Notes: generated by a model from the letters alone, not told the origin. Positions 19,986 to 61,237 are shown, counted from the whole stretch's first letter. The stretch: 62,920 nt of DNA, filler included, from Hausera hauseri (GCA_046269625.1; 9 parts of 9 records of this genome joined end to end with filler, not necessarily neighbours in it); one strand, 5' to 3'. Numbers and translations are program-made.

Positions 19986-20015
19986 GCGTGGTATACCGAG
20001 TGCTTTATATGATAA

Positions 20016-20045
20016 AATAACCTGACAACTACAGATCGGGTTATT
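20016..20045 (+). promoter_or_regulatory. Conserved stem-loop between env-like ORF and accessory ORF
   Basis: AATAACCTGA-caactacaga-TCGGGTTATT; identical stem at 27795..27824 on minus strand. Confidence 0.65.
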
Positions 20046-20132
20046 CTATTATCAGACAGTGAAGATATTTCGTTTTGAAATACGAATCTGTCTAAGGAAT
20101 AACTTAAATTATTCTTATTTCAGATTAGTATT

Positions 20133-26901: not shown

Positions 26902-27712
26902 CTATCATACAGCCATAAAGACAATGGTCTAACTCTAAACGGACTTGTTGGATATCTGTCCCTCTTATGAGTTGGTCCCTTCTTAACCCAGTCATCTCTG
27001 CATATGACTCTCGGACATGCTTCCGGGGGTTTATTACTGTGGATTATATTTCAGATCCGTCTCTTTCTCTAATAGATATCTCGATGGGTATTCCATATCC
27101 ATCGTCTACTTTTCCTCAATTCCTTGCTAAGATTCTTATGTTACGTCCATCTTGAACTAATCTATATGATTGCTTATGTTCGTCCTTTTCTACTTCTGTC
27201 GGAGTCCGTTCAAATTCCGAAACCGGCAAACATAAATTGCAGTTCTCTTTATAGGTCACTTCGAACATAGGTTTAACAGGAAGGGCTGCTACTATAAATT
27301 CCAGACCATAGTTGATACTTTCTAAGCCCTGTTTATTTATTCTAAATGTACTAAACCGATAGTGATGCCCTTCATTGGAGTTCTATGGTTGGTCTTCTAC
27401 TCTGTAGTATAGTTCCCCGTCAGCTAGGTGTATGTATACTTCTTCAGTTCTTTTGGTCCGTTTTTGAATCAGTTCCTTTAGTGAGTGAGCTCTTGCTTGG
27501 TCATTTTCACGCATTGCGTATAGGTAAACGGTTCGATTTTCTTCTGTTATACGCTTCAGGTCATTTGGGATCTCGATCACCTTTGAAAATTCGATTGCAG
27601 TTTCGGCTTGGAGGGCTTCCGTTATGCGTCGGTATATGGATTTTGATTTGGGTACTGTCGCATGTTCCTTTAGGAAATTGTCGACGCTAAATCGACTAGT
27701 CATACTTACCAT
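26902..27712 (-). pseudogene. Accessory ORF of B2 (truncated by gap)
   Basis: FSVDNFLKEHAT..EENRTVYLYAMREND..EVYIHLA..LVQDGRN..IPIEISIR..YAEMTGL..LDHCLYGCMI aligns with B1 20133-20950. Confidence 0.8.
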
Positions 27713-27859
27713 TCTGAAAGAAAATACAAAATAAGGGTCAATCCTAAAACAAAGTATTGTTCTAAAAATGAACCAATTCTTTGTTTGATGGTGGAATAAC
27801 CCGATATGTAATTGTCAGGTTATTTCATCATTAATTTTATCCTGTGGTACCATTACCCT

Positions 27860-29240
27860 TAATTCCCTCTCGGTGATTTTATGACGCTTTTTATGACATT
27901 TTCCGGTAATCAATCGACAAAACGAAATAAAAATTATGAGAGCTAATATTGACGTGCCAATAACTGATATTAATGACGACGTTGTCTATTTAGTCAAATT
28001 TTTCGTTTTAACGGTAGTCGTAATCTCATCCTTCGTTTTTTCGTTGATTAATGGCTTTGTTACGACAATCTCGTTTAATGTCCGTACCGTAAATGTTCTA
28101 CTTTGTCTGTTCTCGGCACTCATTTATATTACGTAATCTATTTTGGGTTTCAGACCGGTACATTCGATTCGATAAATACCTCTAGCTAATGTTATTTTTT
28201 ATTATTGTATACTGTTCGACAGTTAATCTTTACGTCGTAATTAAGTGCTTCTTCGACAGCAAAAGTTATTTCGCGCTGTTGTGCCCAATATTTTACAGGA
28301 ATTATTTCTAGATCCCTTTGAGACGATTTATTTGTTGGAATGATTTTGATGAGTGCAGGAGTAGTGGACTTTGTTTTCTTATTCGTTGCTGTTTCGACTG
28401 AATTCGGCTTAATTGGATTTCTAAATCGGTAACTTCCTAGATAAACACTCGACTGGTTTGGTCTGACTTCATATAAGTCTAACTGAATTCTATAATTATA
28501 TTTCTGGGGTAATTTGCAGCATCTGTTCGGTCGCTCGACATCGACTTGACAGTACTGGTGGCTGTAAGCTTGTATGTTCTCTTTCAGAAACCGGACTGAA
28601 ATTACTCGACCGTTAATTAATCGTCATTTTGTGTTTATTTGAACACAATTGTCCCTTGGATTTTCTGTTATACTGGCGAAATTTTCTTCCAGCATCCGCT
28701 TTACTGGATCGACGGACTGGAGCATTTCGTTAGGCTTTATCCCAGAATGCCTGTTTCCGGCAGGGATGACCAATTGGAACTGTGGTTCTATTTCATAGGT
28801 TTTAGATAATTTCGGTGAATACAGTCGATAGGTAAGTTTATAAGTGTGTCCGAAATCCGTATTGCAACACTGTGTATGCTCTCCGGGATCAAAATCACAG
28901 TTCTTTGTTTCTTTTGTCATTACATCAACCAGAACAATTTGAAATCTTCCAGAATTGTAGTGTGGTCTCTGTGCCTTGAATCCCACGCATGACTAGTTCG
29001 GGGAGTAATAATGAATTGTAAGTGATTGTAACGACGTAATATCTTCTTGATTCTGTGTTTCTTCTATTGTCGGTATCTTTTCCGTTTTTCGCGCTTCGTA
29101 TACATTCTTTAGTGTGGATCCGTCGTGCCACCACCGAGCTTGTGTTTTCGGAATACAAGAAGTTATTAATGATAATGCTCAAACTATCTGGACGTACGAT
29201 ATCGGTCTGGTGATAATTGATGAGGTCTTGTTTTCTCGTG
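27860..29240 (-). pseudogene. Env-like ORF of B2
   Basis: RPISYVQIV*ALSLITSCIPKTQARWW; IQLDLYEVRPNQ; TM SLISVIGTSILALIIFISF. Confidence 0.7.
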
Positions 29241-32200
29241 ATCTTAGATTGTAACATTTAACTGGTCTTATATCTGTTTTAACCACTCTTTCGATTGATA
29301 CGACTTCCTCTTTTCCGTTTTTATTGACAAAACTGTGGTCGGCGTTATGCGGATGATTTCATAGGGTCCTCTTCCGGTACGTGTCAATTTCAAGGATGTA
29401 CCTTTCTTTGCGACTGGATAATGTATATAACCCCAATTTCCCTTTTCCAAATCATGAGGTTTAATCTTTTTGTCGTATTGCTTTTTAAATTATTCCTGAT
29501 ACTCGAGCGATAATGTTTTTGCCACTTCCCAACATTTCTGCAATCTTGTCTGTAAGACTTCCGCAAAGTTTTGCTCTAAATCTTTGAGATTCTTTTCGTA
29601 CGGTGTCATACCTAGATCTGTGGGTAAGATTGCCTCTCGTCCATACATTATAAAGAATAGTGTAAATCCTGTTGCTGGATGTGGAGTTGTACTTATCGCG
29701 AACTGTGTTCCTTCTAGGAAGTCATCCCAAATCCTTTTGATCTTTTGCCACTACTGTTGATAGTATGCGAATGACTGTTGCGTTCATTCGTTCGACCATT
29801 CCATTACATTGTGGGTGATATGCGGTAGTAGTTAAACGTTCAATTTCGAATATCTTGGTAATTTTTTTGAATAATTCGCTTGTGATGTTCCTTCCTCTAT
29901 CTGTTAGGATTTGTTCTGGTGGTCCGTATCTGCAGATAATCTTTCTTACCACTGCGTCAGCTAGAGTTTCCGCCTTTTGATCTAATAGTGCCACTAGTTC
30001 GACGAAATGCGTTAGCCGGTCTACACATGTTAGAATGTATCTATTATTTTTGTGAGTTTTAGGCAAAGGTCCTACTATATCCATAGACATGGCTTGCATG
30101 GGCCTATCCGGTACATTTATATGCTTTAATTCTGCTACATAGCCTTTTGTTTTCTTTTGTTTTGTCGCGCAAACTTCGCACGCTCCTACCCAATTCTTTA
30201 CATCAATATAGATGCTTGGCCAATAGTATTTATTTAATATTCTCTCTAATGTCTTCTTCCAAGACATATGCCCGGCTAAATATGAATCGTGTTCGGCCAT
30301 GAGTACATCGATACGTAATCCTTTTGGAATAACTATCAGTCTTCTTTTTTTTCTCTTGTAATATAAAATATTATCTTGATTTTATGCATGATATTTATGT
30401 CCCTGTTTTTGTAGGTGCTTTATCAGCTATCGTCCTTTGGGGATCGTATCATTTTGTACAAACTCGATAATTTGTTGAATAACCGTGTCTTTAACTTGTT
30501 CAGTTGTAATTCTAATCGTTTTATCCGATATTAGAGTTCTTTGTCGCTCAATCAGCTGCTCAAGTTGTGGTTTCTTTAATGTGATGATCGCACTGGTTTT
30601 TGTCTTTAATCTTGACAGTGCGCCAGCGTCGACGTGTTTATTACCTGGTTTATATTGGAATTCAATATTATATCGTGAGATCTCCTCGATCCAACGGTTT
30701 AATCTACATGTTGGGTTATTAGCTCGTCCTTTTAAGGTTGTAACTGCCTTGTGGTCGGTCACTATTATGATCTTTTGCCCGTAGACGTAAGCATTAAAGT
30801 GGCGTAGTGCTTTCTTTACGGCTAACGTTTCTAATTCGGTAACCGAATAATTTTTCTCTGCTTTCTTTAATGAGCGTCCTCCATAGGCTATTGGATGTTC
30901 TAATTCTTCCTTTTCTCGTTCCTGAGCTAATTCGTATCCTATGCTTTCTTTACTTGAGTTTGTTTTAATGATAAATGGTCGATTAAAATCCAAATATCTT
31001 AAAACTGGTTCACTTGTCAAAACTTTCTTCATTTCATCAAATGCCCTTTGTTCCACTTCTGCTCATCTCCACTTAGTTCCCTTTTTAAGTAGGCGATATA
31101 GTGGCGCGTTTATTTTTGAGTTGTCTGGTACATAAGTGGCATAATATCCACATAGGCCTAACCAGTGTCTTACCTCTTTTTGATTCTGTGGTTCCATGCA
31201 ATCGGATATTTTATTTAGCAAGGATTTATCTAGTTTTGATCCTCCTTCTCCAACTATGTGTCCAAGATAGGATACTGCATTCTGTGCCCATTTACATTTC
31301 TTTGGGTTTAGTTAGATCCCTGCTTGTTCTAATCGCATGAGTGTATCCTCAATTTCCTTTAAATGTTCCTCCTCCGTTTTTGATGCTATCATCACGTCGT
31401 CTAAATACTCGCATGCATGGTCAAGTCCCATAAGCATCTTATTCATCATTCTGGTAAAAATAGCTGGTCCTGTGGTGATGCCGAAAGGCATAACGTTAAA
31501 TTCGTATACGCCATCGTGTGTTTTGAATGCTGTCTTATATCGATCTTCTTCTTCGATTTCCACTTGCCAGCATCCCGATTGTAAGTCGAGAGTGGTGAAC
31601 CATTTTGCTCCTGAAAGTCTATCTAATGCCTCCTTTACTGATGGTAGCGGGAATAAGTCTTTCATCATTAGCGTGTTCAATGCCCGATAATCTATACAAA
31701 ATCGATGTTTTGTATTTCCTTTCTATTTACCCATCAGTATGGGTAAGTACCATGATCGGTAACTTGGTCAAATTATGTCGGCCTTTAACATTCGCTCTAC
31801 TTCTTTAGTTATCTCTGGTCTCAATGAGTGAGGAGGCGGACACACTTGGGCATTTTCTGTTCTTCTAGATCGATTTCGTCATTTGAGCCGGGTTTCTTCC
31901 TCAATGGAATTGTTAATCTTAGAGCCTTTGCTCTGTCTATCTTCTTCATTTTGTGCGATTATTGAATTGTACTTGCATAATAGTTCGTAAAACTTACAAT
32001 ATGCTTCAGGAGAAAATTTTGTTTCCACGTAAGGTGGAAATTCAGAACACTTATATGGTTTTTCCTCTATTGTCACTGCCGATACTCTGTACGTGTGGCC
32101 TAAAGTAGTTAAGGGAGTTAATGCATTGTTCACTAATCTGATAGGTATTCGTCCCGTTACTACTCTACACAAAATATTACTAAACATAAGGTTTGGATCG

Positions 32201-32481
32201 ATATTCTCTTGGGCTCAAAGTATACTGGTAAATCCTCGCCCTGTCGGATCTGCGCAAATATTATCATTTCGATTCTAGGCGGAATGTCTTCATCTACTAA
32301 AATCCATACTTCGCCCGATTTCCTTTCTTTTATTACTTTTATCCCATTTATAGGTTCGAGCTTAACTAATTTTCCGCTGTGCACATCGATTGCCATATCT
32401 GGTATCTGTTTCAATATATCGCAACCTAGTACTACATCGTCTGTTAACTGATCCATTATCGCAAATTCGTGTTGAAGTGCT

Positions 32482-32581
32482 NNNNNNNNNNNNNNNNNNN
32501 NNNNNNNNNNNNNNNNNNNNNNNNNTTAATTAATTAANNNNNNNNNNNNNNNNNNNNNNNNNNNNNNNNNNNNNNNNNNNN
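32482..32581. other. Assembly spacer
   Basis: N44-TTAATTAATTAA-N44. Confidence 0.97.
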
Positions 32582-38110: not shown

Positions 38111-41100
38111 AGCCGTGAATATAACAGTTTCGTAGCATCGTATCCAAAATTGCCAAGCTGAACATTGATATATGGATCCGTTGTTTGCTTTCTAAAATGA
38201 GAGAGTCACATGTTGGAGAGATTGCTATTTCCGCTTAAAGTTGAATTTTCGCCTGTGATGAACGAGCTGTGCCTGTGACCGCGGCACCACATCACCCCCC
38301 GTGGCAAGATTAAGACTACAAAGAGAAGAATAAAGAGAGATTGTGGTAGGAAAAAGAAGAACTCATATCTCTTCGGTTTTGGTTCGTGTTAGGCGTTGGA
38401 CTCTATATATGAACTTCTCCCTGCTGTAAGTACTAAATGTCACTTGGTGTTACCTGTTAGATGTTACTGGTGCTTGTGGAGTTGTTTAAGGAGAGATGCT
38501 GTAGATTTTGTGGTGTTCTGGGAGGATGCCTCATGATAAGGTGAAAATGGAGCAGAAGCTGAAAAAAGAAAAGGATCACGTGAAGAAGACGAAACTGGAG
38601 ATAGCAGCAAATCGTGCGATGAAGGTGAAATGAGTAGTGGATGTGCAGGCGATGACGGAGAGGCAGACGGTGAGGGAGCAGTGGATGATGACGGAAACGA
38701 AGAGGGCTGAATGTGACGCGAGAGTGAATGCTGCGAAGGATTAAATTCATCAAGGAAATTAGATGATGGCTCGAGGGTGTAGAAGTTAGAGTTGGGATTT
38801 GAAACAATGCTATTATCCTGGTCATCGTCAACGAAGAAGGCTGGCTTAAGATTAGAAATGTGTACGTTTTGAGGTTTGTCATTGTGTAGAATAGTAGCGG
38901 TGTGTGAAAAAAGGTTCAGTAATTTGTAAGGTCCAACATATTGAGGCCGAAAACCAGAAGGTGACGGATCCTTCAGCCATACAAATTTGGCTGAGTATAA
39001 GTCTTCTGGGATATAAGATTTGTCTTTATTTATAAGACGGACGAAGGTATTCGAGTTGACATCAACAAAGTGGGACTGTGCCGCACGAACAACTTCATCT
39101 GACGGACTTTTATCGAGATTGGAGAGCTCAAATAGTGCACGAACTGGTGTCCCAAAGAGAGCCTCAGCAGGAGCACAGCCTGTGGTGGTGGATAGCGTGT
39201 TGCGCCAACCGAGTAGGACAAGAGGAAGAATTGAGGTCCAGTTATGATTGTTGTTTGCCATGATTTTTAAGGAAATCTTCATGGTGCGATGAAATCTCTA
39301 TTGAAGACCATTTGCTTGGGGATGGTACGGCGTCGTATAGAGATGGACTATCCGCAAGTGCTTCACAAGAGATTTGAAAAGATCAGCTTCAACATGCGGA
39401 CTCTGGTCCGTTATGATATGACGTGGTGAGCCAAAACAGCTGACTCATACCTTGATAAATGCATCTGCTACCGAGTAAGTGTTAGTTGATCGAAGCGGAA
39501 CGGCTTCAGGACAGCGGGAAACACGATCCATCATGGATAAGATATATTGGTAACCATTAGAGGACCCACAAGATCTAAATGCACGGTTTCAAAACGAGAA
39601 GTGCAAGGGAAGTGGTAGAGTGGTGGTTCGAAGTGTTTATTAACCTTGTATTGTTGACATGCTACACATCCCTTGACCCAGATCTGTACATCGGTACGTA
39701 TAGTTGGCCATATAACGTGGTGTTGCAATAGATGAAATGTGGCTTTTGAATCCGGATGATGAAGAGAATGAAAGTGATTGAAAGCTGTCTTTTGTAACAA
39801 TGGAGCAAGAATGATTTTCTTGTTGGTCGAGTTAGAAGTGTCATAAGCGATTCCATCGACGATTTCAACAGATTTAAAAGCTTGGAGAATATCAGATGAT
39901 GGCTGATTGCTTTTCACGACCTCAGGGGAGAAAATTGGCTGAAATGTAATTGAGGTAACCGGCCGCTTAAGAAAATCTGCTGCTAAATTTTCGGTACCTA
40001 AAATATATTTCATGGAAAAACTAAACGTTGATAGGTATGATATCTGTCGTTCTTGTCTGGGTGAGGGCTGTTCCAAAGTCATTATGTGATGTAGAGGCTT
40101 ACAATCGGTTTGGATGGTGAATTTGCGTGAACGAAACTAGTGCTTGAAATGCTTTACCGATAGTATTACAGCCAAGAGTTCACGATCGAATGTTGAGTAT
40201 CAGCTTTCCGGTTGCGTAAGCTTTCGGGAATAGAATTCTAATGGTTCATCGACGCCATTGCATATTTGGTGTAATATTGCACCAGTTGCTGTAGTTAGCG
40301 CATCGGTAGTTAATATTATTTCAGCGTTTGGCTTTGGAAAGGCCAAGATTTCCACAGTTTTCAGACCTTCACGAAGGCGATCAAATTGGTTTACTAGATC
40401 GGGAGTCTAATGGATTAATCGTCTTTTATTCCCAGATGAGAGGTGTGCAAAAGGTGCCATTAGTTCGGAACAGTGTGGTACGTATTTTTGTACAAAATGC
40501 AATGTCCCTAGAAAACGCCTCATATCCGTAGTAGTGGTTGGCAACGTCACATTTTTTAACTGTTGTAAGCGATCGGTCTAGGGCAAGTACCCTTCGGAAG
40601 CAATTATGTGGCCTAAGAAGTTGACGCGTTTCTAGAAAAAATTGCATTTGGCGAAATTAATTTGCAGGTTGCTTTGATGCAATCTGTGGAAGATAATTCT
40701 TAAGTGCTCATGATGTTTTTTGATGGAGCTGGAAGCGATTAATATGTCATCTATATATTGGTGAGCGAAATCAAGACCAGAAAACACAGTGTCAATGTGG
40801 CGCTGAAAGGTTTGAGATGCACTACGTAGGCCGAAAGGCATGAAGATGTATTCGCAAAGCCAAATGGTGTGATGACAGCAGTTTTTGGAATGTCATCAGG
40901 GGCAACAGGAATTTTATGGTAGGCCTTGTGTAGATCAATGGTAGAATAGGTATTGGTGTTGTTGAGGTCATGACGAATATCTTTAATGAGTGGTAGTGGA
41001 TAGGCATCAGTAATAGTTAGATTTTTTAATTGTCGATAGTCGCCACATGGCCTATAGGTATCGTCTTTCTTTACCAATACATGAAGAGGAGAAGCCCACG

Positions 41101-41800
41101 GTGAATTAAATCTCCGAATGATGCCAGACTTTTCCACTTCATTAAATTTCTGTTCCACAGCTTTACATTTGCGTGGCGACAAAGGTCTGACCTTTTGTCT
41201 GATCAGCTTCTGATGCTCTGTTACTATGAGATGATAAGTTGTGGATGGAGGCTTAAAGTTGACGTCCCTTTTAACTATGCCAATGCAAGACGTTGTGACG
41301 TATGATTTAAGATTTGAGTCTAAAGATAAGAATGAATGAGGCATATCATTAGAGAAAACAGCTCCAGTGATTGACGAAAAGCAACTGGCATCTCTACTGT
41401 TAACGCCTAATTTGGCTTTTTGTTTTAGAATAGATTTATGATTGTCGTTCGTAAGTGAAATATTACCATCTTTATTGGAAGTTTTTTGTAGATGACGAAG
41501 CGTTCAACATATTCACAGATGAGTGTAATGAATTTCTTGCTAAATTGTCTTCGAGACACATGTTGCATTCGAGTTCCTGCTTAAAAGACAGCTGTATTTG
41601 AAATCGACCAATAGATCATGTGAGACAAGAAGATCTGAACCTATTAGGGAGATTTAATGTTGGCCACGTGGGACTTCCAGACAAACTTATCTGGCAAGTT
41701 GGCGAATGTGAAAGTCAATTCCGTATTTCCAGCAACGTGCAACAGTTGACTACTGGCAGTGAAAAGCGGTGGACAAGAAATCATAGTCGATGTAAGAAAG
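38111..41800 (-). mobile_element. Gypsy family A copy A2 (protease end to PPT and start of 3' LTR)
   Basis: RT/RH/IN fragments; PPT ggggggtga then LTR TGTGGTGCC from 38291 to the gap; closely similar to A3. Confidence 0.92.
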
Positions 41801-41808
41801 TTAACTAG

Positions 41809-42338
41809 TTATTCAGTACAAGTCATGACATTGAGCAGAAAAGGTCTGGGTCCACTAATATCTTCCGAAATTGCCGATACTAATATCCTCTTACCGCAAA
41901 GACAGATGAGTTCACACGGTGCCCATTTCAGTTTAACAGCATTAGGTCCCGGAATAAACTGTTCAGACTTCAAAGAAATATTTTCTTTATAATCAACATC
42001 ATCATAAATATAGTGATTATAAGACTGGTTCATAGAATATAAATTATTGGTATTATAAGCTTATTTATTAACCGTATTAAGAGAATCGGAAGCTTCATCC
42101 ACATTATCAAAACAACATAACTCAATTTACCATTTTCATAAACTTTTTTGATAACACTCTGTCCGCTTAAAATTTTTTCATAACATTCCTTAGATAATAA
42201 AACTGTATCGGATTCGTTTGGTTTATTATCGTCAACAATACTTACTTTAATTAAACTTTGTTCATCATATATTTCACCGTCATTCATCATGCAATTAAAA
42301 AACAATAGTTTGTAAAAACCGTCTAACGACAAAAACAA
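41809..42338 (-). pseudogene. Non-retroelement cargo, possibly a LITAF-domain gene fragment
   Basis: APCELICLCGKRILVSAISEDISGPRPFLL resembles the first half of a LITAF zinc ribbon; truncated at the A2 junction. Confidence 0.3.
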
Positions 42339-42492
42339 AAGTCCTTATTTATTTACATATTTAAACAAAAATTTTAGTTTTCTAACCAAATCACCCGTTG
42401 GGTGAATGTGTGCACCACAGTCATTACCATCCATTTTTCGGCGTAAAAAATAATTTAAATACTTTGTAAGAAGAAGGATCAGAAGTTATATT

Positions 42493-42507
42493 CCACTTCT
42501 GACACCA
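42493..42507 (-). promoter_or_regulatory. Primer-binding site, tRNA-Leu type
   Basis: TGGTGTCAGAAGTGG 2 nt after the LTR end. Confidence 0.8.
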
Positions 42508-42509
42508 AC

Positions 42510-42941
42510 TGTGGCTGAATAATCCAACTAGAGTGACAATAGTTTTTATTGCAATTCAAGTACAAAATTCTAATCGCTAATTACAAATCAATTCTTCATG
42601 CTATAATATATATGTACATACAATAATAACACGACTATACATATAGCAATTATATAACGAATGTCTTTAGGGATCAGTTCATCTATTGGTAATTATCGTT
42701 TCATTCCAATATTGTCATATATAAACTAATTGGAACCACGATACTCATTGGAAATATTATTTGATTTAACTAACACTCGCATAAATAAAAACGTTGAAGA
42801 CACAAAATTGTAAATAAAAACTATAATACAAGTATAGAGAATTACTAGAATTACATCTACTTGTAAAATTTTACTTTAAAGTGTAGTCATATGGTAGGGA
42901 AAGTCTTCTCACCGGTCCGCTACCCATTCAGTGCGACCACA
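42510..42941 (-). repeat. LTR of a further family (D), 432 bp
   Basis: TGTGG..CCACA termini, TATA-like and AATAAA motifs, followed by PBS; related fragment at 51040-51232. Confidence 0.8.
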
Positions 42942-45900
42942 CTTTAAGCACTATATCACTCCCGTGGGCAAATGAAGATTACAAAGAAAAGAATAAATGG
43001 AGATTATAGTAGGAAAAAGAAGAACTTATACCCATTCGGTTTTGGTACGTGTTAGACGTTGAATTCCATCTATGAACTTCTCCCTGCTGTAAGTACTAAA
43101 TGTCACTTGATGTGATCTGTTAGATGTTACTGGTGCTTGTGGAGTTGTTTGAGGGAGAGATATTGTAGATATTGTGGTGTTTTGTGAGGATGCTTCATGA
43201 AAAGGAGAGAGTGGAGAAGAAGATGAAAAGGGACAAGGATCACGCGCAGAATATGAGACTGGATATGTCAACGAATCGTGAGATGAAGGTAAAATGAGTG
43301 ATGGATGTGCAGGCGATGTCGGAAAAGTCAATGATGAGGGAGCAGTGAATGATGACAAAAGTAAAGAGAATTGATTGTGACGCGAGACTGAATGCCGGGA
43401 AAGATTAAAATCATCAAGGAAATTAGATGATGGCTCGAGGGTAGAGAAGTTAGAGTTGGGATTTGAGACATTACTGTTATCCTGGTCATCGTCAACGAAG
43501 AAAGCCGGCTTAAGATTGGAAATGTGTACGTTGTGAGGTCTGTCCTTGCGTAAAATAGTGGCGGTGTGCAATGAAATGTTCAGTAATCTGTAAGGGCCAA
43601 CGCATTAGTGTTGAAAACCCGAAGGTGACGGATCCTTTAGCCATACAAACGTGGCTGAGTATAAGTCCTCTGGGATATAAGATTTGTCTTTATTTATAAG
43701 ACGGCAGAAGGTATTTGAGTTGACATCAGCAAAGTAGGACTGTGCTGCACGAATAACTTTATCTGATGTACTTTCATCGAGATTGGAGAGCTCAAACAAT
43801 GCACTAATTGGAGTCCCAAACAGTGCCTCAGCTGGAGCACAGCCGTGGTGGTGGATGGCGTGTTACGCCAACCGAGTAGGACAAGAGGAAGAATTGAGAT
43901 CCAGTTATGCTTGTTGTTTGCCAGAATTTTTAAGGAAATCTTCATGGTGCGATGAAATCTCTCGAGAAGATCATTTGCTTTGAGATTGTACGGCGTCGTA
44001 TGGAGATGAGCTGTCCCTAAGTGCTTTACAAGAGATTTGAAAAGATCAGCGTCAAATTGCGGACCCTGGTCCGTAATGATGTGACGTGGTGAGGCAAAAC
44101 GGCTGACTCATATCTTGATAAATACATCTGCTACTGAGTCGGTGTTACTTGATCGAAGCGGAACGGCTTTAGGCATGCGGGACGCATGATCCATCATAGA
44201 TAAGATATATTGATAACCATTGTCGATAGGTAGAGGACCCATAAAATCTAAATGCACGGTTTCAAAACGAGAAATGCAAGGGAAGTGGTAGAGTGGTGGC
44301 TTGACGTGTTTATAAACCTTGTATTGTTGACATGTTACACATTACTTGACCCAAATCTATACATCGGTACGCATAGTTGGCCATACAACGTAGCGTTGAA
44401 TATATGAAATGTGGTTTTTGAACCCGGATGATGAAGAGAATGAAAGTGATTGACAGCTGTCTTTTGCAGCAATGGAGCAAGAATTATTTTCTTGTTGATC
44501 GAGTTGGAAGTGTCATAAGCGATTCCATCGGTGATTTCAACAGATTTAAAAGATTGGAGAATATCAAATGATGGCTGATTGCTTTTCAGGACCTCACAGG
44601 AGAAAATTGGCTGAACTGTAATTGAGTTAACCGATCGCGAAAGAAAGTCCGCTACTAAATTTTCGGTGCCTGAAATATATTTTGTGGAAAAACTAAAAGT
44701 CGACAGGTATGATATCTGTCGTTCTTGTCTGGGTGAGGGCTGTTTCAAAGTCATTATATAAAGTAGATGCTTATGGTCGGGTTGGATGGTAAATTGACGT
44801 GAAAGAAGCAAGTGCTTGAAATGCTTTACCGCTAGAACTACAGCCAAGAGTTTATGATCAAATGCTGAATATCGGCTTTTCGGTTGCGTAAGCTTTCGGA
44901 AATAGAATTCTAATGGTTCATCGACGCCATTGTATATTTGGTGTAATATCGCACCAGTTGCTGTGGTTGAGGCATCGGTAGTTAATATTAGTTCAATGTT
45001 TGGCTTTGGAAAGGCCAAGATTTCCACAGTTTTCAGACTTCACAAAGGCGATCAAATTGGTTTACTAGATCCGGAGTCCAATGGATTGATTGTCTTTTCT
45101 TTACAGATGAGAGGTGTATGAAAGGTGCCATTAGTTCGGAGCAGTGTGGCACGTATTTGTGTACGAAATGCAAGGTCCCTAGAAAACTCCTCATATAGGT
45201 AGTAGTGATTGGCAACGTCACATTTTTTAATTGTTGTAAGCAATCAGGCTAGGGCGAATGCCCTTCTGGAGTAATTATGTGGCCTAAGAAGTTGACACGT
45301 TTCTGGAAGAAATTGCATTTGGAGAAATTAACTTGCAGGTTGCTTTGATGCAATCTGCGGAAAATAATTCTAAGGTGCTCATGATGTTGTTTGATTGAGC
45401 TGGAAGCGGCTAATATGTCGTCTATGTATGGGTGAGCAAAATCAAAACCAGAAAGAACGGTGTCAATGTGGCGCTGAAAGGTCTGAGATGCGCTACGTAG
45501 GCCGAAAGGCATGAAGATGTATTCATAAAGACCAAATGGTGTGATGACAGCAGTTTTTGGAATGTCATTAGGGGCAACAGGAATTTGATGGTAGGCTTTG
45601 GGAAGATCAATGGTAGAATAGGTATTGGTGTTGTTAAGGCTATGAAGAATATTTTTAATGAGTGGGAGTGGATAGGCATGTGTAATAGTTAGATTGTTTA
45701 ATTGTCGATAGCCGCCACATGGCCTATAGGTACCATCTTTCTTTACTACTACATGAAGAGGAGAAGCCCACGGTGAATTCGATCTCCGAATGATGCCAGA
45801 CCTTTCCAGTTCATTAAATTCCTGTTCCACAGCTTTACGACTGCGTGGCGACAAAGGTCTGACCTTTTGCTTGATCGGCCTCTGATGCACTGTTACTATG

Positions 45901-48190
45901 TGATGTTAAGTTGTGGATGGAGGCTTGAAGTTTACCACCCTTTTAACTATGCGAAAGCAAGACGTTGTGACATATGATTTGAGATTGGAGTCCAGAGAGA
46001 ATGAATGAGGCATGTCATTAGAGAGAACAGCTCCAGTGATTGACGAAAAGCAGCTGACATCGCTACTGTCGACGCCTAATTTGGATTTTTGTTTTAGGAT
46101 AGATTGTCGTTTATAATGGAAATATTGGCGACTTTATCGGAAGTTTTTTTATAGATGACGAAGCGTTCAACAAGTTCATAGATGAGTGCAGTGAATTGCT
46201 CGCTAAGTTGTCTACGAGACACATGTTTGGAGTTGCAATTGAGTTCCTGCTTAAAAGACAGCTGTATTTGCAATCGACCAATATATCATGTGCGGCGAGA
46301 AAACCTGAGCCTATTATGGAAAGTTTAATATTGGCCACGTGGAACTTCCAGACAAACTTACCCCACAAGTTGGCGAATGTGAAAGTTAATTCCGTTGTTC
46401 TTGCAACATGCAACGGTTGACCACTGTTAGTGAAAAGCGGTGGACAGGAAATCATAGTTGATGTAGGAACGAAGGACAAGGGAAGGAGCGAAAAGGCAGC
46501 TCCTGAGTCTATAAGGAAGTCTATGTGAAATAACTCTGAATAACACTACAGCTTTTAACAGAATGACTGCAGAGGCGGTGTTGAAACGGCCAAAAGATTG
46601 AGCGATATTGCCTGCGCCAGAATGTGCCGTAAAATCTGGTGGCGTTATTAGTTTTTTGAAGGTTTTGGAGAAAAGGAAGAGCAGGAGGAAAAGCAAGGAG
46701 ATTTATGGTTGTAATGTTTACAATCAGGCACACATGATCTAGCCCGTGACCGAAACTTATTGTGATAGACGCAAATAGGGTTGTCTACAACGTACCGTTC
46801 GCTGTAGAACCGACAACCCAAAAAACATTTCCGAGCATCCCTTCGAAGTCGCGTGTGATAAAAGCAAGTCATGCGTCCGCCAGGTGAAATGGATCGACCA
46901 AAGTGTCTTGAAATGCTTCTCTCCCTTGAAGGTCTGGTTTCACTTCGTCGAAGCCCATTAAGATCATTTAGTTGGGTAGTAATGGTCAGAATCGACTGCT
47001 GCAACTCGTCAAACTGTTTCTGCATCATTTGCAGTTGTTGTGAAAATGATGTATTATCTGTGTGTGAAGGTGTGTCAGCGGTTGCTGCAGCTACTGGTTG
47101 TGAACTATTAGATTGCAAAATGTCAAAACTTTTGTCTGACAATAAGGCGAGCTTTTCAAGGGCCGTTGAGTCGTCTACTACAGTGAGCAGCGCTCTCATG
47201 GAGGTCGGCAAGGATGAAAGAAAATACCGACGACGAAGATCGGCATTGTTTATGGGAGAGACGCCTAAGGAACTCAGTTGAGATATTTCAGTTTTAAGGA
47301 AATCCGATGGTTTTTGATTTCCGATGACATGTTCATTAAAGTATTTCTGAACTATGCTGTCAATGGAAGGGTCGATAATGTGAAGAACTGATTCATAAAG
47401 CATATCATATGGATTTGAAGAGGTTAGTATATCGTACAGATTATTGATTTGCTGCTTGATATTAGCCGGAATTAGTAGCAACAAACTGTTCGCCCGCAAG
47501 AAGGAATCTGTGATATGATTGGCCTTAAGCCATTGCAAATGGAATTGTAACCAGGTACAACTTGAATTCGTCTTGTCGAGAAAGAAATCTGTGCAAGGGA
47601 GATTTGGAAATGTAGTTGGCGTGGGATCGCAGGACGATGACCAGGTCTGGTCTTAGTGGGATTTTCCACAAGGATCGGGGTCCGATCCACCCCGTAGGCG
47701 AGAATGGAGAATGAGACAGGTGTCTGAACGTTCGTGGCATATGAAAGACAAGAGGGAGTCTGAAGGATGTATTATAAGCCCTTGATATGTGAAATAGAAA
47801 TCAGAAGTGTTATATGATGTACACAAAGCGTTACATAAGAACTGTGCTGTCTCATTGGGTGGAGCTTGTAAGTTTGTGATGTGTGGATTGTAGCTAAGGA
47901 CTATGAAAGATAATTGTAATGAGGTCATCCCAAGGGAGCGATGAAATGCACGGGAGGCTTGGGCGATTATCTTTTGGGTTAAAAAGCGGTTCGTGTACAA
48001 CCGGGATAGCGGTGGCAGGTGATGATTGGGATAAAGGAATATCCAAAGATGTTAAACTTAGAAAACCTTTAAAATGAAAAATGGTGTTAACCACGAGACC
48101 TGCATAAGCGCAAAAGGTGGTCGCACTGGTGGGCATGAATCACTGAAAAAAAACTCACCCACCTGAGTCCGAATGTGATTTTTCTGAACG
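42942..48190 (-). mobile_element. Gypsy family A copy A3 (Ubl-gag-pol to PPT)
   Basis: RLRGG Ubl, gag 46648..47538 with two CHCC knuckles, FLIDSGA protease, YIDDIL, TTDAS, integrase, S/P-rich tail. Confidence 0.93.
47686..47930 (-). other. Ubiquitin-like domain N-terminal to Gag (A3)
   Basis: LQLSFIV..NLQAPPNETAQFL..DFYFTYQGLII..TCLILHSRLRGG. Confidence 0.78.
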
Positions 48191-48199: not shown

Positions 48200-50490
48200 C
48201 ATCCTCATTATGACCTTGACTACAAGACGAGTTTTTTGTAATACATGGAGATGGAGGTATTGCAGTAAGGTCTATTTCACCTCGAGAATCAATAGAGTTT
48301 GATGATACTGTTCCATCAACTTGTTTTCCAGAGCTGAGTCCTTTTATATATTCTAATTCCTTCCTAATGTCATCATTTAATACAGAAGTTCTAACAAATT
48401 CTAACGATGGGTCATGTGGAAATAATTTCTTTCTATCAAGAGACTCGGATTCAATATCCATTGATTCTTGAACAGTCAACCTTTTGGGACCATCTCCGTC
48501 TTCACTATCCGATGTAACATGTTCACCCATGTGTTCAGGTTTCTCCAAAATGACGATTTCTTCTGTTTCTTCCTCTTCAATTTCCCAACTAATTACTTCC
48601 GTTGTAACTTTTCGTAGAAATTCAAATATATTTAAATAATGCTGCCTTCGGGCAATGAGCAGCAGTCCATCCTTGATTATTTTTAATGTTCGGATCAACA
48701 CTTCTATAACCAGAGATACATTAACTGCAGATGGCCTTGTTGTGCGGCCAAATATAGAGGGGTATAACCTAACTCCATTTTTTCGTATAATTCATCCTTT
48801 GACATTAATCCAATAAGATATCGGGAAATGTTTATTTGACCAAAATGAGCAGATGTTTGTAGTGATGTATAACCGGCATTTGTTTTTAAACTGATTTCAG
48901 CGTTTTGTTGAACAAGAATCTTAGCTACAGCTACCTTATCTTCCTGCGCAGCCAGATGCATTGATGTTAGTCCATTCTCAGCTTTATGATTAACATTTGC
49001 TTTATGTTCCAGCAACAAAGACACCATATCCATGTAACCCTCATGACTGGCTAACTGCAAAGACGTAAAACCGTTTCTTGATTCTGAATTTGGATGGGCA
49101 TCGTGTATCAACAAATTGCTTGCAATATTTTGGTTATTCATTTTAGCCGCGATGTGCAATAGAGTATAACCATTAAAAACCTAAAGTTTTGCATTCGCTT
49201 TGTATTCCAAAAGCAATTGGACAATCTTAGGATGCTGATGTGTTGCGACGTGAAAAGGAGTTAAGCCATTTGATGCTGTTTTGTTGGTATCAGCCTTCTT
49301 TTGCAGTAAAACAACAGCAACGTTGAACTTATTGTACTTCGCGGCAATATGTAGGGGTGTATACCCTCTCTTTGTTTTGGCTTCGATGTTTGTTCCGTTT
49401 TCAATTAACAGAGTAGTGACCCCATCTTGGCCTTCCTTTGCAGCTACGTGTAACAGTGTATAGTTGTCATTTGTTTGTGCATTTGGATCAGAACCACTTT
49501 GTAAGAACAATGTCACTAGTTCTATATTTCCGTTTCTAGTAGCTATGTGTAAAGCTGTTGTATCTTCCTTAGCTCGAGCATCCGCTAGTGCACCAGATCG
49601 AAGAAGAATTTTAACATTTTCCGTTTGATTATTTCGTGTCGCTAAATATAGAGGCGTTTCTGCTCTCATTGTACCTTGTTCGATATTAGCTCCTTTTTGA
49701 ATTAACATATTAACTGATTCTTTTGGTCCAACAAAAGCTGCTACGTGGAGAGGTGTTAGGCCAGACTCAGAACTTTCTTCGGTAGTCGCTTCCAAAAGAG
49801 CGCCATAATTTAGCAATAATTCAACAATTTTCACTCGATGTTTTTACAAGAAATATGGAGAGGTGTAAATCAATTCATTTCTCGACTGTTTGGATCACAA
49901 TGTCTAAGGGAACCCTGGCGACTTTTTCGTTGACATAATGGGTTGCTACATGAATAGGTGTTAGAAACTCCTGTTATTTCGTTTATATTGGCTCTACGAA
50001 GAAGCAGCACTCTAGCAGCATCGTCACAATCACATTGAGCAGTCATGTGTAACGGCGAAAGGCCATTCTTTGATTTAAACTGAACGTCAGCTCCATTATT
50101 CAACATGAACAAAACGATATCAAGATGGCCTTCCTGCGCGGCCATGTACAAAGGTGTAAAACCGCTCGTTGATTTATGATTAATATTAGCTCCACTTTCA
50201 ACGAGAATTTTTATGACGTCTAATTTGCCCGATAAACTGGCAATATGCAACGGCGTATTGCCCCTTTTCGTTACAGTGTCAAGCTTTGCTGATCTGTTAA
50301 GAAGTTCTTTAACAACGTCAATGAAAGCATCTTTGGATGCAAGACGCAAAGCAGTCAATCCAATATCATTGCATGTGTTAATATCTGTTCCCGTGTCCAG
50401 AAATTCGATAACTTTCTGTAGATTTCCAGCCCTTGCTGATCTTAGAAGGCTTTGATTTGATTCCGTATTTTCGGCATTCGATTTTGTCAT
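48200..50490 (-). pseudogene. Intronless ankyrin (ANK1/2/3-type) membrane-binding-domain copy, frameshifted, internally deleted, truncated before ZU5
   Basis: LLRSARAGNLQKVIEFLDTGTDINTCN, GNTPLHIASLSG, GFTPLYMAAQE, post-repeat LRKVTTE..PEHM..SDSEDGD. Confidence 0.88.
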
Positions 50491-51022
50491 TGTTGATAGA
50501 AAAAAAAATCCATGAATATTTGGTTGTTTATAGTCCACGACCAAAACTATTTTCATTGTACAATTCTTTTCTTTTTGTATATCCATTATGTACTGATGAT
50601 TTCGAAGAAAATATTTTCCACACATCAATTCCACCGTCAATATGATATGATAAATACTGACCAGTAAAGAAAAGAGGATACCAAAGATTCTCTTTATTGA
50701 ACAAACTTTGAATTATATTTATCTGTGGAACGTGACAAAAGGTCATTAAACTCATATTTTTTGTTAAATCATCCAAACTGATCCAAAATTCAAACTCATG
50801 ATTGAACTTTAAATTAAAACGTCTTCGGACAACATCATTTATAGATTCCCATTCCATTGAGCCAACACTATAGAATCCTTGCCAATCACCATTAGTAACA
50901 TGGATATAATTCTGACACCAATGCAGAGCCAGCATTATATGGGGATGACGTAAATCAAATGATAGCGAAAACTGATTCTGAACAACAATCATTTTGTATT
51001 TTTTAGAAACTCCAAAATTCAA
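50491..51022 (-). pseudogene. Calpain-like fragment (end of protease core + start of domain III)
   Basis: DWQGFYSVGSMEW..EFWISLDDL..TFCH..W..FTGQY..GG..FLRNHQY..GFFF. Confidence 0.72.
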
Positions 51023-51039
51023 TAATAAATCTTTTTTTT

Positions 51040-51232
51040 CACATTGTCATATTTACATAAACATACCCATATATACATATAGATACATGAAAGGTTGCAG
51101 ATAATGTAACCAATGTCCTTAGAGATCAGTCTATGTATTGATAATTATTGTTTCATTCCAATTTTGTCATATACAAGCTAATTGGAATAATAAAATCTAT
51201 TCGCAAGTATAATTATTTCAATGACAAATACA
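51040..51232 (-). repeat. Fragment of a family-D-related LTR
   Basis: aatgtccttagagatcagt..attattgtttcattccaattttgtcatata..ctaattggaa matches 42660-42735. Confidence 0.75.
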
Positions 51233-52971: not shown

Positions 52972-53736
52972 TGTTAACGGAATGTTGTAAATAGCAGTCC
53001 GAATTGTTAGCTTTGTACATAAAGATTAAAGTAAAAATTATATCGGAATTAGTAATCGTCATCTACGTAGAATTTCAATTTAGAATTCCATTAGAATTAT
53101 AATTGATTTGAAATACTAATGTTTGCGAAAACTAATTAAAAAACATAACACGCGTATTACAATCGAAAATTACCATTGAAATTGTAGAACAAATGTGGAA
53201 AATTGACAAGTAATTAAATAATACGAGAAGAAAAACGCCCACGTACAACGATCAGTGAATATAAATACTAATTCAAAAAGAATACATGGCATAATTCTCG
53301 ACTATAGCGTCGATTAAAGCAGAACAATCCAAATTTGACTGTAGCGTTGATTAGTATTGAAAGAAATTCGAAAACAAGATATTCAAATTCAGTTGATATA
53401 GATAATTTATCGGCGGAGATCTGTGATTTTGTGGTGAATATTAAATCGGTATTTCCTATTATTTTCCTTAAACTCTTGATAGTTTTTCATGGGCTCTTAA
53501 AGCTGATTAGAGTGACACTAAGGTTAAAATCATACTGCAACTTGTATAAGTATCCGAACTAGTTAATTAAGCACAGGACACGGCAATCAATTAATCCACA
53601 CACGAAAACTATTACACATAGAGCACATTCGTTTAACTAGAACGTTAAACCGAATCTGCGTAAGACAATAATAAATTGAAGTGTAAATTACTTTATATAT
53701 AGAGGGAAGTGATAAGGGCCACCCATATATATAACA
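52972..53736 (+). repeat. 5' LTR of family B copy B3
   Basis: Homologous to 22483..23227 (ggctcttaaagctgatt, gcacattcgtttaac, gtgataagggccaccc), ends ATAACA; start approximate. Confidence 0.8.
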
Positions 53737-53738
53737 TT

Positions 53739-53756
53739 TGACGACCCCAGCAGGAC
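53739..53756 (+). promoter_or_regulatory. Primer-binding site, probably tRNA-Arg type
   Basis: TGACGACCCCAGCAGGAC 2 nt after the LTR; close to the complement of a tRNA-Arg 3' end. Confidence 0.65.
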
Positions 53757-54081
53757 AGTTTGTGCTTAGCCACATACTACTTAGTGTCAAGTAACGACAT
53801 ACCGGCAATCAGCGCCATCTACATCAAGTAATTGTGAGAAATTTAAAATTTTGTGATACAAGTTATTGAACTTAAACTTAGAGGGATAATTCAGGACGAA
53901 TGCTGACAACCAAGTAAACGATAAAGATAAATCACCTATACGTCAGACACGTAGAGTTATATATAGAGAAATAAATAAACGAACAAATTCTGAAACTAGA
54001 GTTAAATTAACTAACGTTAAGCCAAACGGTGAGTTTAAACTTCCTCAACTTGAGAATAAATCTTATAAGAATAAGATAGAT

Positions 54082-57000
54082 ATGGCAGCAGATAATGCAG
54101 CCGTAGCACAGAAGCTGGACATTTTTACATTTGGTTCTTTAAACCTGCCGGCGTACGATGGTGACACGGACGGATTGAACGATTTTTTGAGAACCTATAA
54201 GTTGCACGCCAAAGGTGCTAGTGCCACTCCTAAAGTAACAATAAAACGTTTATCATTGTACTTAAAGAATTTAGCCGCTGATGCTTATAGCGAGCTCATT
54301 AATGATGAAGAGAAATCTTGGTCCTCCTTGGTAGGAGCCTTAAACCGTAAATTGTTGCCAACGGTAACGCCGCAACAGAAATTCATGGCAATTCAAAATA
54401 GAGTGGAACAAAAGGGTGGATCAGTTACCCAATTTGCATTTGCATTAAAGTAACTCACTAAAAGTTATGTGAGCACTTTGAGAATAGCCAACGTAGCAAA
54501 AGCTAAGACAGACGCAGAACGTGAAGCTGCAGAAAAAGCGACACCGCCGGATTTAGACGTCATGATGACAACTCAGTTAATAAATGGCATATGGTCAAGA
54601 AACCTAGTTAAACAGTTAATTTTAGCCAAACCCGAGAATTTTGAGAAAACGTTACAATTAGCTCAAGATTTAGAAATGACATTAGAGAGATATGCCCAGC
54701 AAGGCGACAAATATGAAGGAAATAATGATCGCAATAATCGGAATAGAAACAATAATCAAGACAACAGACGATTTAACGATAATAACCGAAACCGAGGTTT
54801 TGATAACAGAAATCAAAATGCTCACAATATGAATCAAAGAAACGATAACCGGAATACATACGGCACGAACAATAATAAATCGCGCTATATTTCTGATAGG
54901 AACCAAGGTGGTTACTGATCCAATAATAAATACACTGATAATCGAAATAATGATAACAGATATGACGGAGATAACACGCATATGTTACAGAGTCAGAATA
55001 AGAATACAAACAGAGCAAAATCACTCGTAAATGAAGATGGCCGACAAAGGATCGGTCAAAACGGAAATTTGATCTGCTTTACATATAGTAAAGAAGGACA
55101 TATTGCTAGTTCATGTCCAAATCCTAGGAGTGTCACATTTATTGAACCGAATAAAACAAGTATGATTAGAAATAACTTAGAAGCTATCTATGGTAAACAA
55201 GGTGACATAAGTGTAATCATCGAAATGCAAGATCTACGTAGATCTGTAAGGAATCTAGGAGAAACTACTAATCCTCAGGTCATGAAAGCTAGATAAGAAT
55301 ATGAAGAGAAATTACGATTAATGGAAATCTATCATGGATTAATAGAACCACAAACTGAAGAAGAATGGGCACTGGCACCAAATAATACTAATATGACGCG
55401 CAAGAAGTCTATCCCGCAAGGAATAATCCAATCGGAGAAACCGACGACATCTCAGAACGTAGATTTAGACGCAGAATCCGAGAAACACAAACCAGACGAA
55501 ACAACAAATAAGATCGAAAGTGAATTTATTGGGCCTTTAGTTCTTAAGATAACCAAGAATAGAGGTAAATGCCCATCACCTAAGAGAAAATCCAAGATTC
55601 GTTCACGTTCTCCCATTAAAAAGAACATAGAAAGTAGAGAAGACCTTTATACCGCTATACTAGAAGGAGACTTATCCTCAGATATTTCCACTACGCCTAT
55701 AGGGATTCCAGAAGTGTTGGGAACACCCGAGATAATAAATATTAATGACGAAATAAATGAAATTTGTCCGCTTTCCGCTAGTGAGAAAGAAACGGACGAT
55801 AATAATGATCCTGATGCAAGGAAATAGAAAGGTCGACGTTCATGGAAAAATGCCGATGAATTAAAACGAATGAGAATTAGATATCACGACCCAGAGATAC
55901 TCCAACACAATATAGAAAGGCTTAAACAAATTAGTGAAGAAACAGATATATCTGGCAAAGAACAACAATTTGCGGAAAAATTATATAAAAGCTTAAGACT
56001 ATGCAGCGAAGGAAAGCTCGATGAAACAATTGAAATAAGACAACCTGAAGAGGTGTCGCGAGATAGGTTAACGAAATGAAACCACGAATTAGAGTCATGG
56101 ATCAAAAGTGCAGTCGAATTCTTGGAAGGATGGAGTAAAGACGAAGATAGTATCGGTATAAAAGTCGCTGAAGCGCAAACACTACTATCTACCTTAAAGG
56201 CTAATCCTAAGTTGAATAGAGTAGACAGTAATTTAGAATGCAAGATGGGTGAAGTCCGTTATGCAATAATCAACCGGCTTAGATAAAGACCGGTTGGAAA
56301 TCGAAGAAATATTGATTTGGAAATATTGGGTGTAGACCCGATAGATATTGCCCCTTAATGGAGATGATAAAAATTGCCTTTACCGAGCCCAAACAATATA
56401 CAGATTTAGAAGATCGTATTAGAATGGAGAATGAAAAAAGATCACGCATTAACAGGTTGAAGAATCAAATTATGTTAATGAATAATGAGGAAACAAATGT
56501 ATAATAAAGGCGTGCATCATAGAATTTGATGAATATAAGGACGTATTTAACTATGTTAACCAGATCATGAACTTTACAAAGGGTCCAGACGACGAATTAA
56601 AGGATGCATATAAGATGCTAAACAAAGCAATATTAGCAAAGCCAATAATCCCCAATCAACTGTCCGAATGGTCCGAACTAATAACGGGATTAAGTAAATT
56701 AATAGAAGACCGCAGGGAAGAATTCCCAGAAAGTGAACCATCTGTAAAAAAGCAACTAGAAGAAGTGGCACGTAACTTAAACATCATACAAGCAGAAATA
56801 GACATCCGGACACGGTTCGATTCATTACGACGATTAAATTTTATGAAGAAGAAAGAAACGGCAATATTGGAAGAAGTCTATAAAATGATGGAAGAAATTA
56901 ACTTTACAGAAAAGCGAAATATGACTTGCGAATTTTACTCGAGGCTAAGAAACATCCGACGGAAAGGAATCCAACATTTGACAGAGAAACCTATCGACGA

Positions 57001-60314: not shown

Positions 60315-61237
60315 ATGAAATATGCAATCATCGTTATTATATCATGTATAATTAACATGATATCATTGGAATTGCTTCTTCAATCAGTATCGAAGTTTTC
60401 GAATTACCTCACGTTCATTCAATTTCTCTTATATCGATATTCAGCTTTATACTGACCTTCAGAAACGGACTCAGAAGACCGAAAATTCCCATTGGAGACT
60501 ATTTAATAATGTCCTTGTGTTCTGTTGTTATGCAAAAACTGAACAATCTATCACTATCGTATGGCATTTCCGTATCAGTACAGACAATTCTACGATCTGC
60601 ATCATTACCCATCAATTTCGCATTCGGATCCTTGTTTTGTCATAGAAAATATTCCCGACACCAATTTATCGGAACTCTGCTCGTTTCTCTGGGTGTCGTT
60701 TTGGCGAACGTCAATCCCAATGACGAGCAAACTGTTGGCGGGTATTTCAACACGGGAGTTTTGCTGATAATTGTTTCACTGCTATTCAATGCTGTGTATT
60801 CATTCCATCAGGAAATGGCGTTTAAAATATATGATGGACAAACTGATGAATCGATTTTCTTCATTCACGTGCTGTCTCTACCAATATTCTTCTGGTTTAC
60901 GAATGAGATCGTTCAAGAATTCGGATTGATGCACAGCAGTAATGCTGTTCAGATGGGACAGTATTTGTCCATTCCGGTGTGGGCCATTCTCGTAGTCAAT
61001 GTTTGTAGTCAGTTCGTGTGTATTCGAACTATTTTGCAGATTACAACAGTCAGTGGGGTCCTCACACTGACTTTCGTGTTGACTTTGAGAAAATTTATTG
61101 GCACTCTTCTTTCAGCATATTTTTTTGAAAGTTCCTTTACTTTATATCGATGGATTGCAACGATACTTATTATTGCTGGCACCCTAGTTTACTCTAATAT
61201 TTTCAATGGACTTCTGCAGAGTAAAAAACTGGACTGA
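60315..61237 (+). CDS. SLC35B4: UDP-xylose/UDP-GlcNAc transporter (SLC35B4/YEA4-like), intronless, 1-nt frameshift near 60430
   Basis: LTFIQFL, LNNLSLSYGISV..ILRSASL, RKYS..Q, QE..FK.Y, FFIHVLSLP, LTLTFVLTLRKF. Confidence 0.75.

Follow-up and report, generated by a model that had tools for sequence, protein, structure and literature searches.

A predicted ubiquitin-like domain with a conserved di-glycine tail precedes Gag in a CsRN1-like lineage of Ty3/gypsy retrotransposons

We analysed a stretch of 62,920 nucleotides from Hausera hauseri (GCA_046269625.1), hereafter the window, which is made up of nine contigs with N-padded linkers between them; coordinates count from its first letter. The minus strand carries three Ty3/gypsy copies that are related to one another: A1 (about 1000-5600), A2 (38284-41798) and A3 (about 42950-48130). 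In Pol, A2 and A3 are 87% identical, and A1 is about 64% identical to both. The features of the three copies, and of the sequence around A3, are the following:

4516-5304, minus: A1 Gag, with three in-frame stops and then a change of frame near 4513-4499
5305-5631, minus: A1 leader, 109 residues from its Met, with a ubiquitin-like core at about 5532-5305 and the tail HPKIRGG; open into Gag
38284-41798, minus: A2, cut inside the protease, without gag and without a leader
42497-42507, minus: primer-binding-site-like 11-mer TGGTGTCAGAA, presumably a tRNA-Leu site
42508-42963, minus: purine tract (42963-42959), then an AT-rich LTR-like stretch with TATATA and AATAAA; inferred boundaries
43026-46545, minus: A3 Pol, with protease, RT, RNase H and integrase core; spread over several frames with stops, decayed
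46648-47685, minus: A3 linker and Gag, in the frame of the leader; related to DUF7041-type Gags
46651-46657, minus: A_AAA_AAC heptamer at the end of the A3 Gag; the frame one base back runs towards the protease
46866-46813 and 46773-46720, minus: two CX2HX9CX3C (CHCC) knuckles in the A3 Gag
47653-47655, minus: in-frame stop, ten codons past GG, inside a variable linker
47686-47928, minus: A3 ubiquitin-like domain, 81 residues from the Met at 47928 to the GG ending at 47686; tail HSRLRGG
50490-48707, minus: decayed ankyrin repeat region, a candidate captured host piece upstream of A3
about 50890-50732, minus: C-terminal part of a calpain protease domain, a candidate captured host piece upstream of A3
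50970-51226, minus: second LTR-like copy, cut by the contig end; the TGGTGTCAGAA 11-mer occurs again at 50920-50910

Judged by its sequence, A3 derives from a CsRN1-like Ty3/gypsy LTR retrotransposon and has decayed; CsRN1-like here denotes resemblance and not membership of the clade. The order of the Pol domains was taken from Pfam matches, of which the one to the protease (RVP) was weak (E 0.15). The heptamer at the end of Gag is likely to be a -1 frameshift site; among the best 150 of 2,816 matches in the search for relatives described below, 33 of 45 lineage Gags end in KN or EN. The CX2HX9CX3C knuckle was defined for the CsRN1 clade, in which gag and pol overlap in the -1 frame (PMC2582038). 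Our elements resemble members of that clade (CsRn1, PwRn1, AgCR and Kabuki; PMC2582038, PMC6238403) in this knuckle, in a DUF7041-related Gag, in the Pol order protease-RT-RNase H-integrase and in an apparent gag/pol -1 overlap. Unlike the clade as described in these two papers, in whose main text the word 'ubiquitin' is absent, the A3 lineage has a doubled knuckle, a ubiquitin-like spacer and a long open leader before Gag.

The original prediction placed a divergent ubiquitin-like leader ending in RLRGG in front of the A3 Gag, and a leader of this kind is present there, 81 residues long on the minus strand (47928-47686). As had also been noticed, its counterpart in A1 carries the same SDFY[LF]TxxGxI motif, and the two copies are indeed well diverged, with 42% identity in Gag and 24% in the leader. 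Alignment of the two leaders, proposed at the outset as a check, gave a score of 63, which none of 5,000 shuffles reached; without the last five residues the score was 46, reached by 39 of 5,000. The two domains had been called same-sized, which holds for the folded core (about 76 residues) but not for the length from the first Met (109 residues in A1, 81 in A3). There is no stop inside the domain in either copy.

A frameshift had been suspected just downstream of the A3 leader. None is found: leader and Gag have one common frame, with a single in-frame stop (47655-47653) that we read as decay of this copy. Programmed readthrough or an altered genetic code at this stop was considered and rejected, because the junction is open in A1 and in relatives, the three stops of the A1 Gag are of two kinds, and the window has a 1,040-codon frame that is open under the standard code. 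Leader and Gag are in open frame in relatives, among them an open leader-Gag protein with 45% identity from the first search (P0002), which speaks against a stop or constant frame break between RGG and Gag.

Relatives were gathered with a four-row profile against 1.84 billion representatives; this returned 2,816 matches, of which the best 150 were examined, and the profile contained the domain and may enrich for it. A tree of Gag alone was built from 84 of 152 rows, comprising all rows with GG, all rows with two knuckles and one third of the remainder. It contained a group of 46 rows (support 96) that includes A1 and A3 and is marked by the doubled CHCC knuckle. Among the best 150 of 2,816 matches, the pattern x[LIVA]xGG occurs before Gag in 34 of 34 informative rows of this lineage and in 3 of 34 rows outside it. 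The 34 lineage rows are 32 database proteins together with A1 and A3, each with at least 50 residues upstream of the conserved Gag Trp; the remaining lineage rows are seven fragments without this Trp and five that are too short, one of which nevertheless has RLRGG. Ordinary relatives are without the ubiquitin-like domain. They include the other 31 of the 34 outside rows (best 150 of 2,816 matches) and three leaderless elements (L001-L003) found in metagenome scans, which gave no lineage locus. A profile search of a word-indexed collection added one leaderless Gag only.

All 36 aligned rows have the di-glycine where the last strand ends; in the residues before it, position 72 is Arg or Lys in 30 rows and position 73 is Leu or Ile in 34. 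The domain diverges faster than Gag (mean identity 16% versus 30% over 590 pairs), and the hydrophobic pattern of its core is retained across the lineage despite this low identity. The prediction that the di-glycine is under selection, made from two copies, is thereby supported at the level of sequence for the whole lineage: GG is kept in 34 of 34 informative rows (best 150 of 2,816 matches) of a domain with 16% mean identity. At position 44, 28 of 36 rows have Thr, Ser or Cys, and no more than a few have Ile; Arg42 persists in 4 of the 36. A3 has no Lys, and it has Thr at the Ile44-equivalent and Tyr at the Arg42-equivalent position (numbered through P0034); it does not show the hallmarks of ubiquitin proper, namely the Ile44 patch, Arg42 and chain-forming lysines, all of which have functional roles in ubiquitin. 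Because many deubiquitinases use the Ile44 and Arg42 surfaces, which are mostly lost here, the identity of the putative cutting enzyme is uncertain. Proline directly after GG blocks deubiquitinases. It occurs at this position in 0 of 37 rows, as compared with 41 of 333 residues (12%) over the nine positions that follow (nominal p 0.008, with rows that are not independent).

In P0034 the domain is a near-canonical ubiquitin (Pfam E 3.7e-23). It sits among sisters with which it shares 53-64% identity in Gag and only 22-24% in the domain, which suggests that the domain was replaced in this branch by re-capture of host ubiquitin and points to ubiquitin itself as the donor there. P0069 and P0077 group in the tree with single-knuckle Gags that have no leader, which suggests a second, independent gain of the domain; a single origin that includes them is not rejected (p-AU 0.148, 35 rows). 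In another relative with a single-knuckle Gag, P0103, the place of the ubiquitin-like domain is taken by a DVELNPGP motif of the 2A type upstream of Gag, together with a 400-residue leader.

Taken alone, the A3 leader matched no Pfam family and no PDB sequence, and A1 likewise had no match to Pfam ubiquitin (PF00240). The single-sequence model of A3 was poor (pLDDT 47), and its VIA matches were weak and unrelated (best Z 4.7). With a 36-row alignment, which includes one near-canonical ubiquitin, the model reached a pLDDT of 83.7 and had strands and helix in ubiquitin order; since A3 by itself matches nothing and its single-sequence model is poor, the fold prediction depends on the alignment. 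Foldseek returned ubiquitin, SUMO, ISG15 and FAT10 as top rows for this model (TM 0.72-0.77 in the first nine rows). VIA gave Z of about 10 and rmsd of 1.7-2.4 over 72-76 residues, and it ranked beta-grasp domains that are not cleaved (PB1, midnolin, UBL) as high as modifiers. ESM Atlas features, which we treat as a lead only, put the A3 leader in ubiquitin-like clusters at 0.89-0.92 and domain plus Gag in DUF7041 clusters at under 0.9. The A3 domain is predicted to fold like ubiquitin, as a beta-grasp, and this predicted fold and the open leader-Gag frames of relatives support the original reading of a ubiquitin-like leader joined to Gag.

Affinity to ubiquitin was also seen in profile searches. 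Of the 36 family rows, 13 matched Pfam ubiquitin with E no higher than 1, and three rows (P0034, P0101 and P0077), but neither A3 nor A1, passed the PF00240 cut-off; a three-row profile against P0034 was not significant. Against the PDB, the family profile ranked ubiquitin chains first, and they made up most of the best 60 of 424 rows; ubiquitin-eS31 and eL40 fusions were among the matches of this profile. With regard to a closer affinity to NEDD8, FUBI or SDE2 than to ubiquitin, the only ubiquitin-type families among the best 25 of 51 in Pfam were ubiquitin and Rad60-SLD. A profile of 31 relatives outside the A1/A3 subgroup, whose rows had been co-aligned with A1 and A3 (a mild circularity), gave 42.9 bits for A3 and 31.5 for A1, and 30.4 and 22.4 bits, respectively, when the tail was removed (0 of 2,000 shuffles each). 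When the same profile was run on 1,057 six-frame segments of the window, A3 and A1 alone were found at E under 1e-7, the next segment being at E 0.019.

The window holds a second, unrelated gypsy family (17425-22384, plus; 27383-32525, minus; 53426-56258, plus) with extra ORFs after integrase, one of which (21998-22384) includes a RING finger; this family gave no strong match to the ubiquitin-like profile. A small ORF on the minus strand (13073-13507) encodes a RING-like finger and appears to be internally duplicated. At 13688-14385 and 16136-16375 there are degenerate AT-rich repeat arrays, among them a tandem unit of 40 bases, and an uninterrupted ORF of 293 residues (60356-61237, plus) encodes a nucleotide-sugar transporter of the UAA family.

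The idea of a leader needs one correction: the domain is usually not N-terminal and lies inside the frame, as a spacer that separates Gag from a longer stretch upstream. Among the best 150 of 2,816 matches, 26 of 31 complete-domain rows lack a Met where the domain begins, and 20 of 35 database relatives have an open upstream frame of 100-876 residues, which in 12 of the 35 extends to at least 240 codons. A random 300-codon frame would stay open with a probability under 1e-6. Identifiable host pieces were present in 8 of the 20 long upstream frames, all 20 having been searched against Pfam and three against the PDB. The pieces were Rrp44 with CNOT1, SCC3, histone H2A, 5'-nucleotidase, RING, Hsp90, Arp8 (E 0.001) and LRRC47/PheRS beta. 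On sequence comparison, such pieces turn over between near-identical elements: P0011 and P0012 are 92% identical in Gag and 78% in the domain, and their upstream frames are unrelated.

These long ORFs are unlikely to be spliced gene models, because they nearly fill their contigs (for example, 1,323 residues on 4,274 bases). Three leaders recur on second contigs (P0006/P0154, P0015/P0155 and P0025/P0158), each pair possibly from a common source. Nineteen of the 20 relatives that were looked up come from ENA, JGI/IMG or Logan assemblies. Assembly joins do occur in the collection, as P0004 illustrates, in which a lineage Gag is joined mid-domain to an unrelated PF19089 protein, probably through an assembly join in the public collection.

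Upstream of A3, the calpain and ankyrin pieces share the strand of the element and resemble the mosaics of relatives. They are out of frame with the A3 leader, and the 600 bases between the ankyrin piece and the leader gave no matches, also when the frame was searched; we liken this frame, as an assumption, to an ankyrin linker. The ankyrin piece is collinear and intron-free over 374 residues, as a retrocopy would be; the DNAH7-like axonemal dynein piece elsewhere in the window is also unbroken, over 556 residues, and the host may have long exons. Ankyrin and dynein pieces alike suggest that the host is a ciliated animal. That dynein piece, together with about 480 further residues, forms the 1,040-codon open frame at 8064-11186 (minus), which with 7589-8047 (minus) is possibly another host-gene mosaic; two GTAATATT donor-like sites come after the frame at 8064-11186. 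The LTR-like copies on either side of A3 are 75% identical over 246 aligned bases (compared with 42775-42507; 0 of 500 shuffles reached the score), and the TGG-starting 11-mer comes after both. While these copies differ by 25%, the A3 leader and Gag contain one stop in 426 codons, with 3 to 6 expected at 5-10% divergence. Because the pieces are out of frame and 600 bases away, the LTR-like copies are divergent and the host may have long exons, we lean only slightly towards the calpain and ankyrin pieces belonging to A3 as cargo. A tRNA-Trp primer site, as in the CsRN1 clade, was not found: TGGTGAC, which we take to be the pattern of this site, did not occur upstream of A1 or A3, and the true 5' end is uncertain. 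Searches of the window gave no tRNA genes and no Rfam families.

From run X1, which may be the source of the window, 11,802 contigs lay on the stretch. Their summed depth, which is not copy number, was in the thousands inside the element, 1,507 and 755 over the leader bins, and 54 at 48239-48400; we read from this that the A3 family has many copies, with the leader in common and a variable upstream part. The high-depth part of A3 is flanked on both sides by an inverted repeat of 16-17 bases (48113-48128, minus, and 42929-42945), which can be extended to about 30 if gaps are allowed. In the region 38111-42960, A2 stands in tandem after A3, behind the LTR-like stretch, the primer-site-like 11-mer and about 700 bases, and the sequence after the A2 purine tract departs from that of A3 within about 11 bases.

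From the sequences, the predicted structure and analogy with known systems, we consider it probable that the domain is a spacer that a host deubiquitinase would cut, freeing Gag from the variable leader. We infer five steps. Ribosomes would begin translation well upstream of the domain, within a leader that picks up and exchanges pieces of host mRNA, and would read through the domain into Gag. A host protease that reads the tail would then cut after GG, so that Gag and Gag-Pol gain a fixed N-terminus. As the cut would make Gag assembly independent of whatever precedes it, the lineage could tolerate captured sequence in frame. The domain would be selected for fold and tail only, and not for conjugation or receptor binding, and the stop in A3 would be decay that followed insertion and not recoding.

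Host fusion precursors such as ubiquitin-eS31 and ubiquitin-eL40, to which FUBI-eS30 and SDE2 can be added as ubiquitin-like examples, also have a beta-grasp domain with a di-glycine tail ahead of a partner protein; they are host genes with the domain at the N-terminus, whereas the retrotransposon domain is mostly internal, and mobile. In cytopathic pestiviruses, ubiquitin inserts are cut by cellular C-terminal hydrolases to give the authentic NS3 N-terminus (PMC8310069). The pestivirus inserts (BVDV Osloss, CP Rit; PMC8310069, PMC13517609) are likewise captured, in frame and immediately in front of a viral protein, in many cases with further captured pieces ahead of them, and they act as a processing signal cut by the host, as proposed here. 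The retrotransposon lineage shows the same layout, with an in-frame ubiquitin-like unit directly before Gag and a residue other than Pro after GG. As described in these sources, the pestivirus inserts are recent, near-exact and found in single strains, whereas the domain reported here is fixed in a deep lineage, at 16% identity, before a retroelement Gag.

Other mobile elements offer partial parallels. LTR-mediated retroposition yields spliced host mRNA pieces, sometimes of several genes, in LTR element sequence, with microsimilarity where they join it and often in frame (PMC5131818); the retrocopies described by Tan et al. 2016 (PMC5131818) are chimeric and their elements discontinuous, whereas here the pieces precede a retained Gag with a predicted cleavage unit between. 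The 2A/StopGo sequences of retroelements, reported mostly in non-LTR ones, act by co-translational skipping without a protease (bioRxiv 10.64898/2026.09.24.754024, PMC5009743); they too separate an upstream from a downstream polypeptide in one frame, and a motif of this type is present in P0103. Ginger, Mutator and Helitron transposons, in which Ulp1, OTU and USP domains occur, similarly borrow parts of the ubiquitin system, but as described they carry the protease, whereas the A3 lineage carries the substrate (PMC2836005). We found no report of a ubiquitin-like domain before a retrotransposon Gag in the full-text literature, with subscription journals, Repbase, GyDB and supplements outside the scope of the search. 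The type of element is known and the proposed mechanism is known from RNA viruses; the ubiquitin-like spacer before Gag would be a new variant.

Several alternatives to a host-cut spacer were weighed. The released domain might have a role of its own, either being conjugated as a modifier or decoying host ubiquitin enzymes that would otherwise restrict the element; its free di-glycine tail and Arg/Lys72, both retained, would fit this. Transposons do engage the ubiquitin pathway, given that some carry Ulp1, OTU or USP domains (PMC2836005). However, the surface is not conserved (16% mean identity, Arg42 in 4 of 36 rows, Ile44 in few rows, and an A3 domain free of Lys), the domain would stay attached to a variable upstream polypeptide in most relatives, and the 2A-type motif of P0103 separates without yielding any modifier, all of which makes an independent role improbable. 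We find it just as hard to credit that the domain is never cut and is a folding, solubility or binding module on Gag. Loss of the Ile44 patch would fit such a module, as would the VIA ranking of non-cleaved PB1, midnolin and UBL domains level with modifiers, but if GG were a flexible hinge, the fixed [RK]-[LI]-x-G-G register and the absence of Pro after GG would be unexplained, as would particle assembly with up to 876 variable residues in front.

A third alternative, somewhat less improbable than these two though still unlikely, has the cleavage step in common with our preferred reading. Here the domain and its cleavage are real and the host leaders are artefacts, arising from assembly joins or from insertion of elements beside host genes, so that what remains is a simple fusion with ubiquitin at the N-terminus, which raises expression or determines the residue with which Gag begins. 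P0004 is such a joined product, the A3 domain begins with a Met of its own, and the fall in summed depth from about 1,500 over the leader to 54 at 48239-48400 is in keeping with it, as is the single stop in 426 leader-Gag codons (3 to 6 expected) beside LTR-like copies that differ by 25%. Against it stand the improbability (under 1e-6) of an open random 300-codon frame, the recurrence of three leaders on second contigs (which may share a source), ORFs that fill most of their contigs and leave little room for spliced models, and the lack of a Met at the domain in 26 of 31 rows. By far the least probable is that ubiquitin was captured once and now drifts without function. Both A1 and A3 are decayed and the domain diverges faster than Gag, as expected of a relic, but GG is invariant, the core holds on to its hydrophobic pattern throughout a deep lineage in spite of 16% identity, and no stop falls within the A1 or A3 domain.

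If the domain is indeed a spacer cut by the host, an LTR retrotransposon would mature its Gag through host deubiquitinases and not through its own protease or start codon. This would explain how an autonomous element can carry in-frame host cargo without poisoning particle assembly. The lineage would also provide a natural series of ubiquitin folds at 16% identity with the tail kept, a test set for what the cleavage of linear fusions needs. More tentatively, and with somewhat less conviction than doubt, we suggest that a captured, host-cleaved ubiquitin may serve as a universal adaptor between Gag and a fast-exchanged, translated leader of host fragments, leaving the two uncoupled; this adaptor would have been renewed from host ubiquitin on one or more occasions, would have been acquired repeatedly and could be replaced by 2A. 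Such elements would be standing factories of in-frame chimeric host proteins, and may offer a route for the expression and shuffling of chimeric host-gene fragments in animals.
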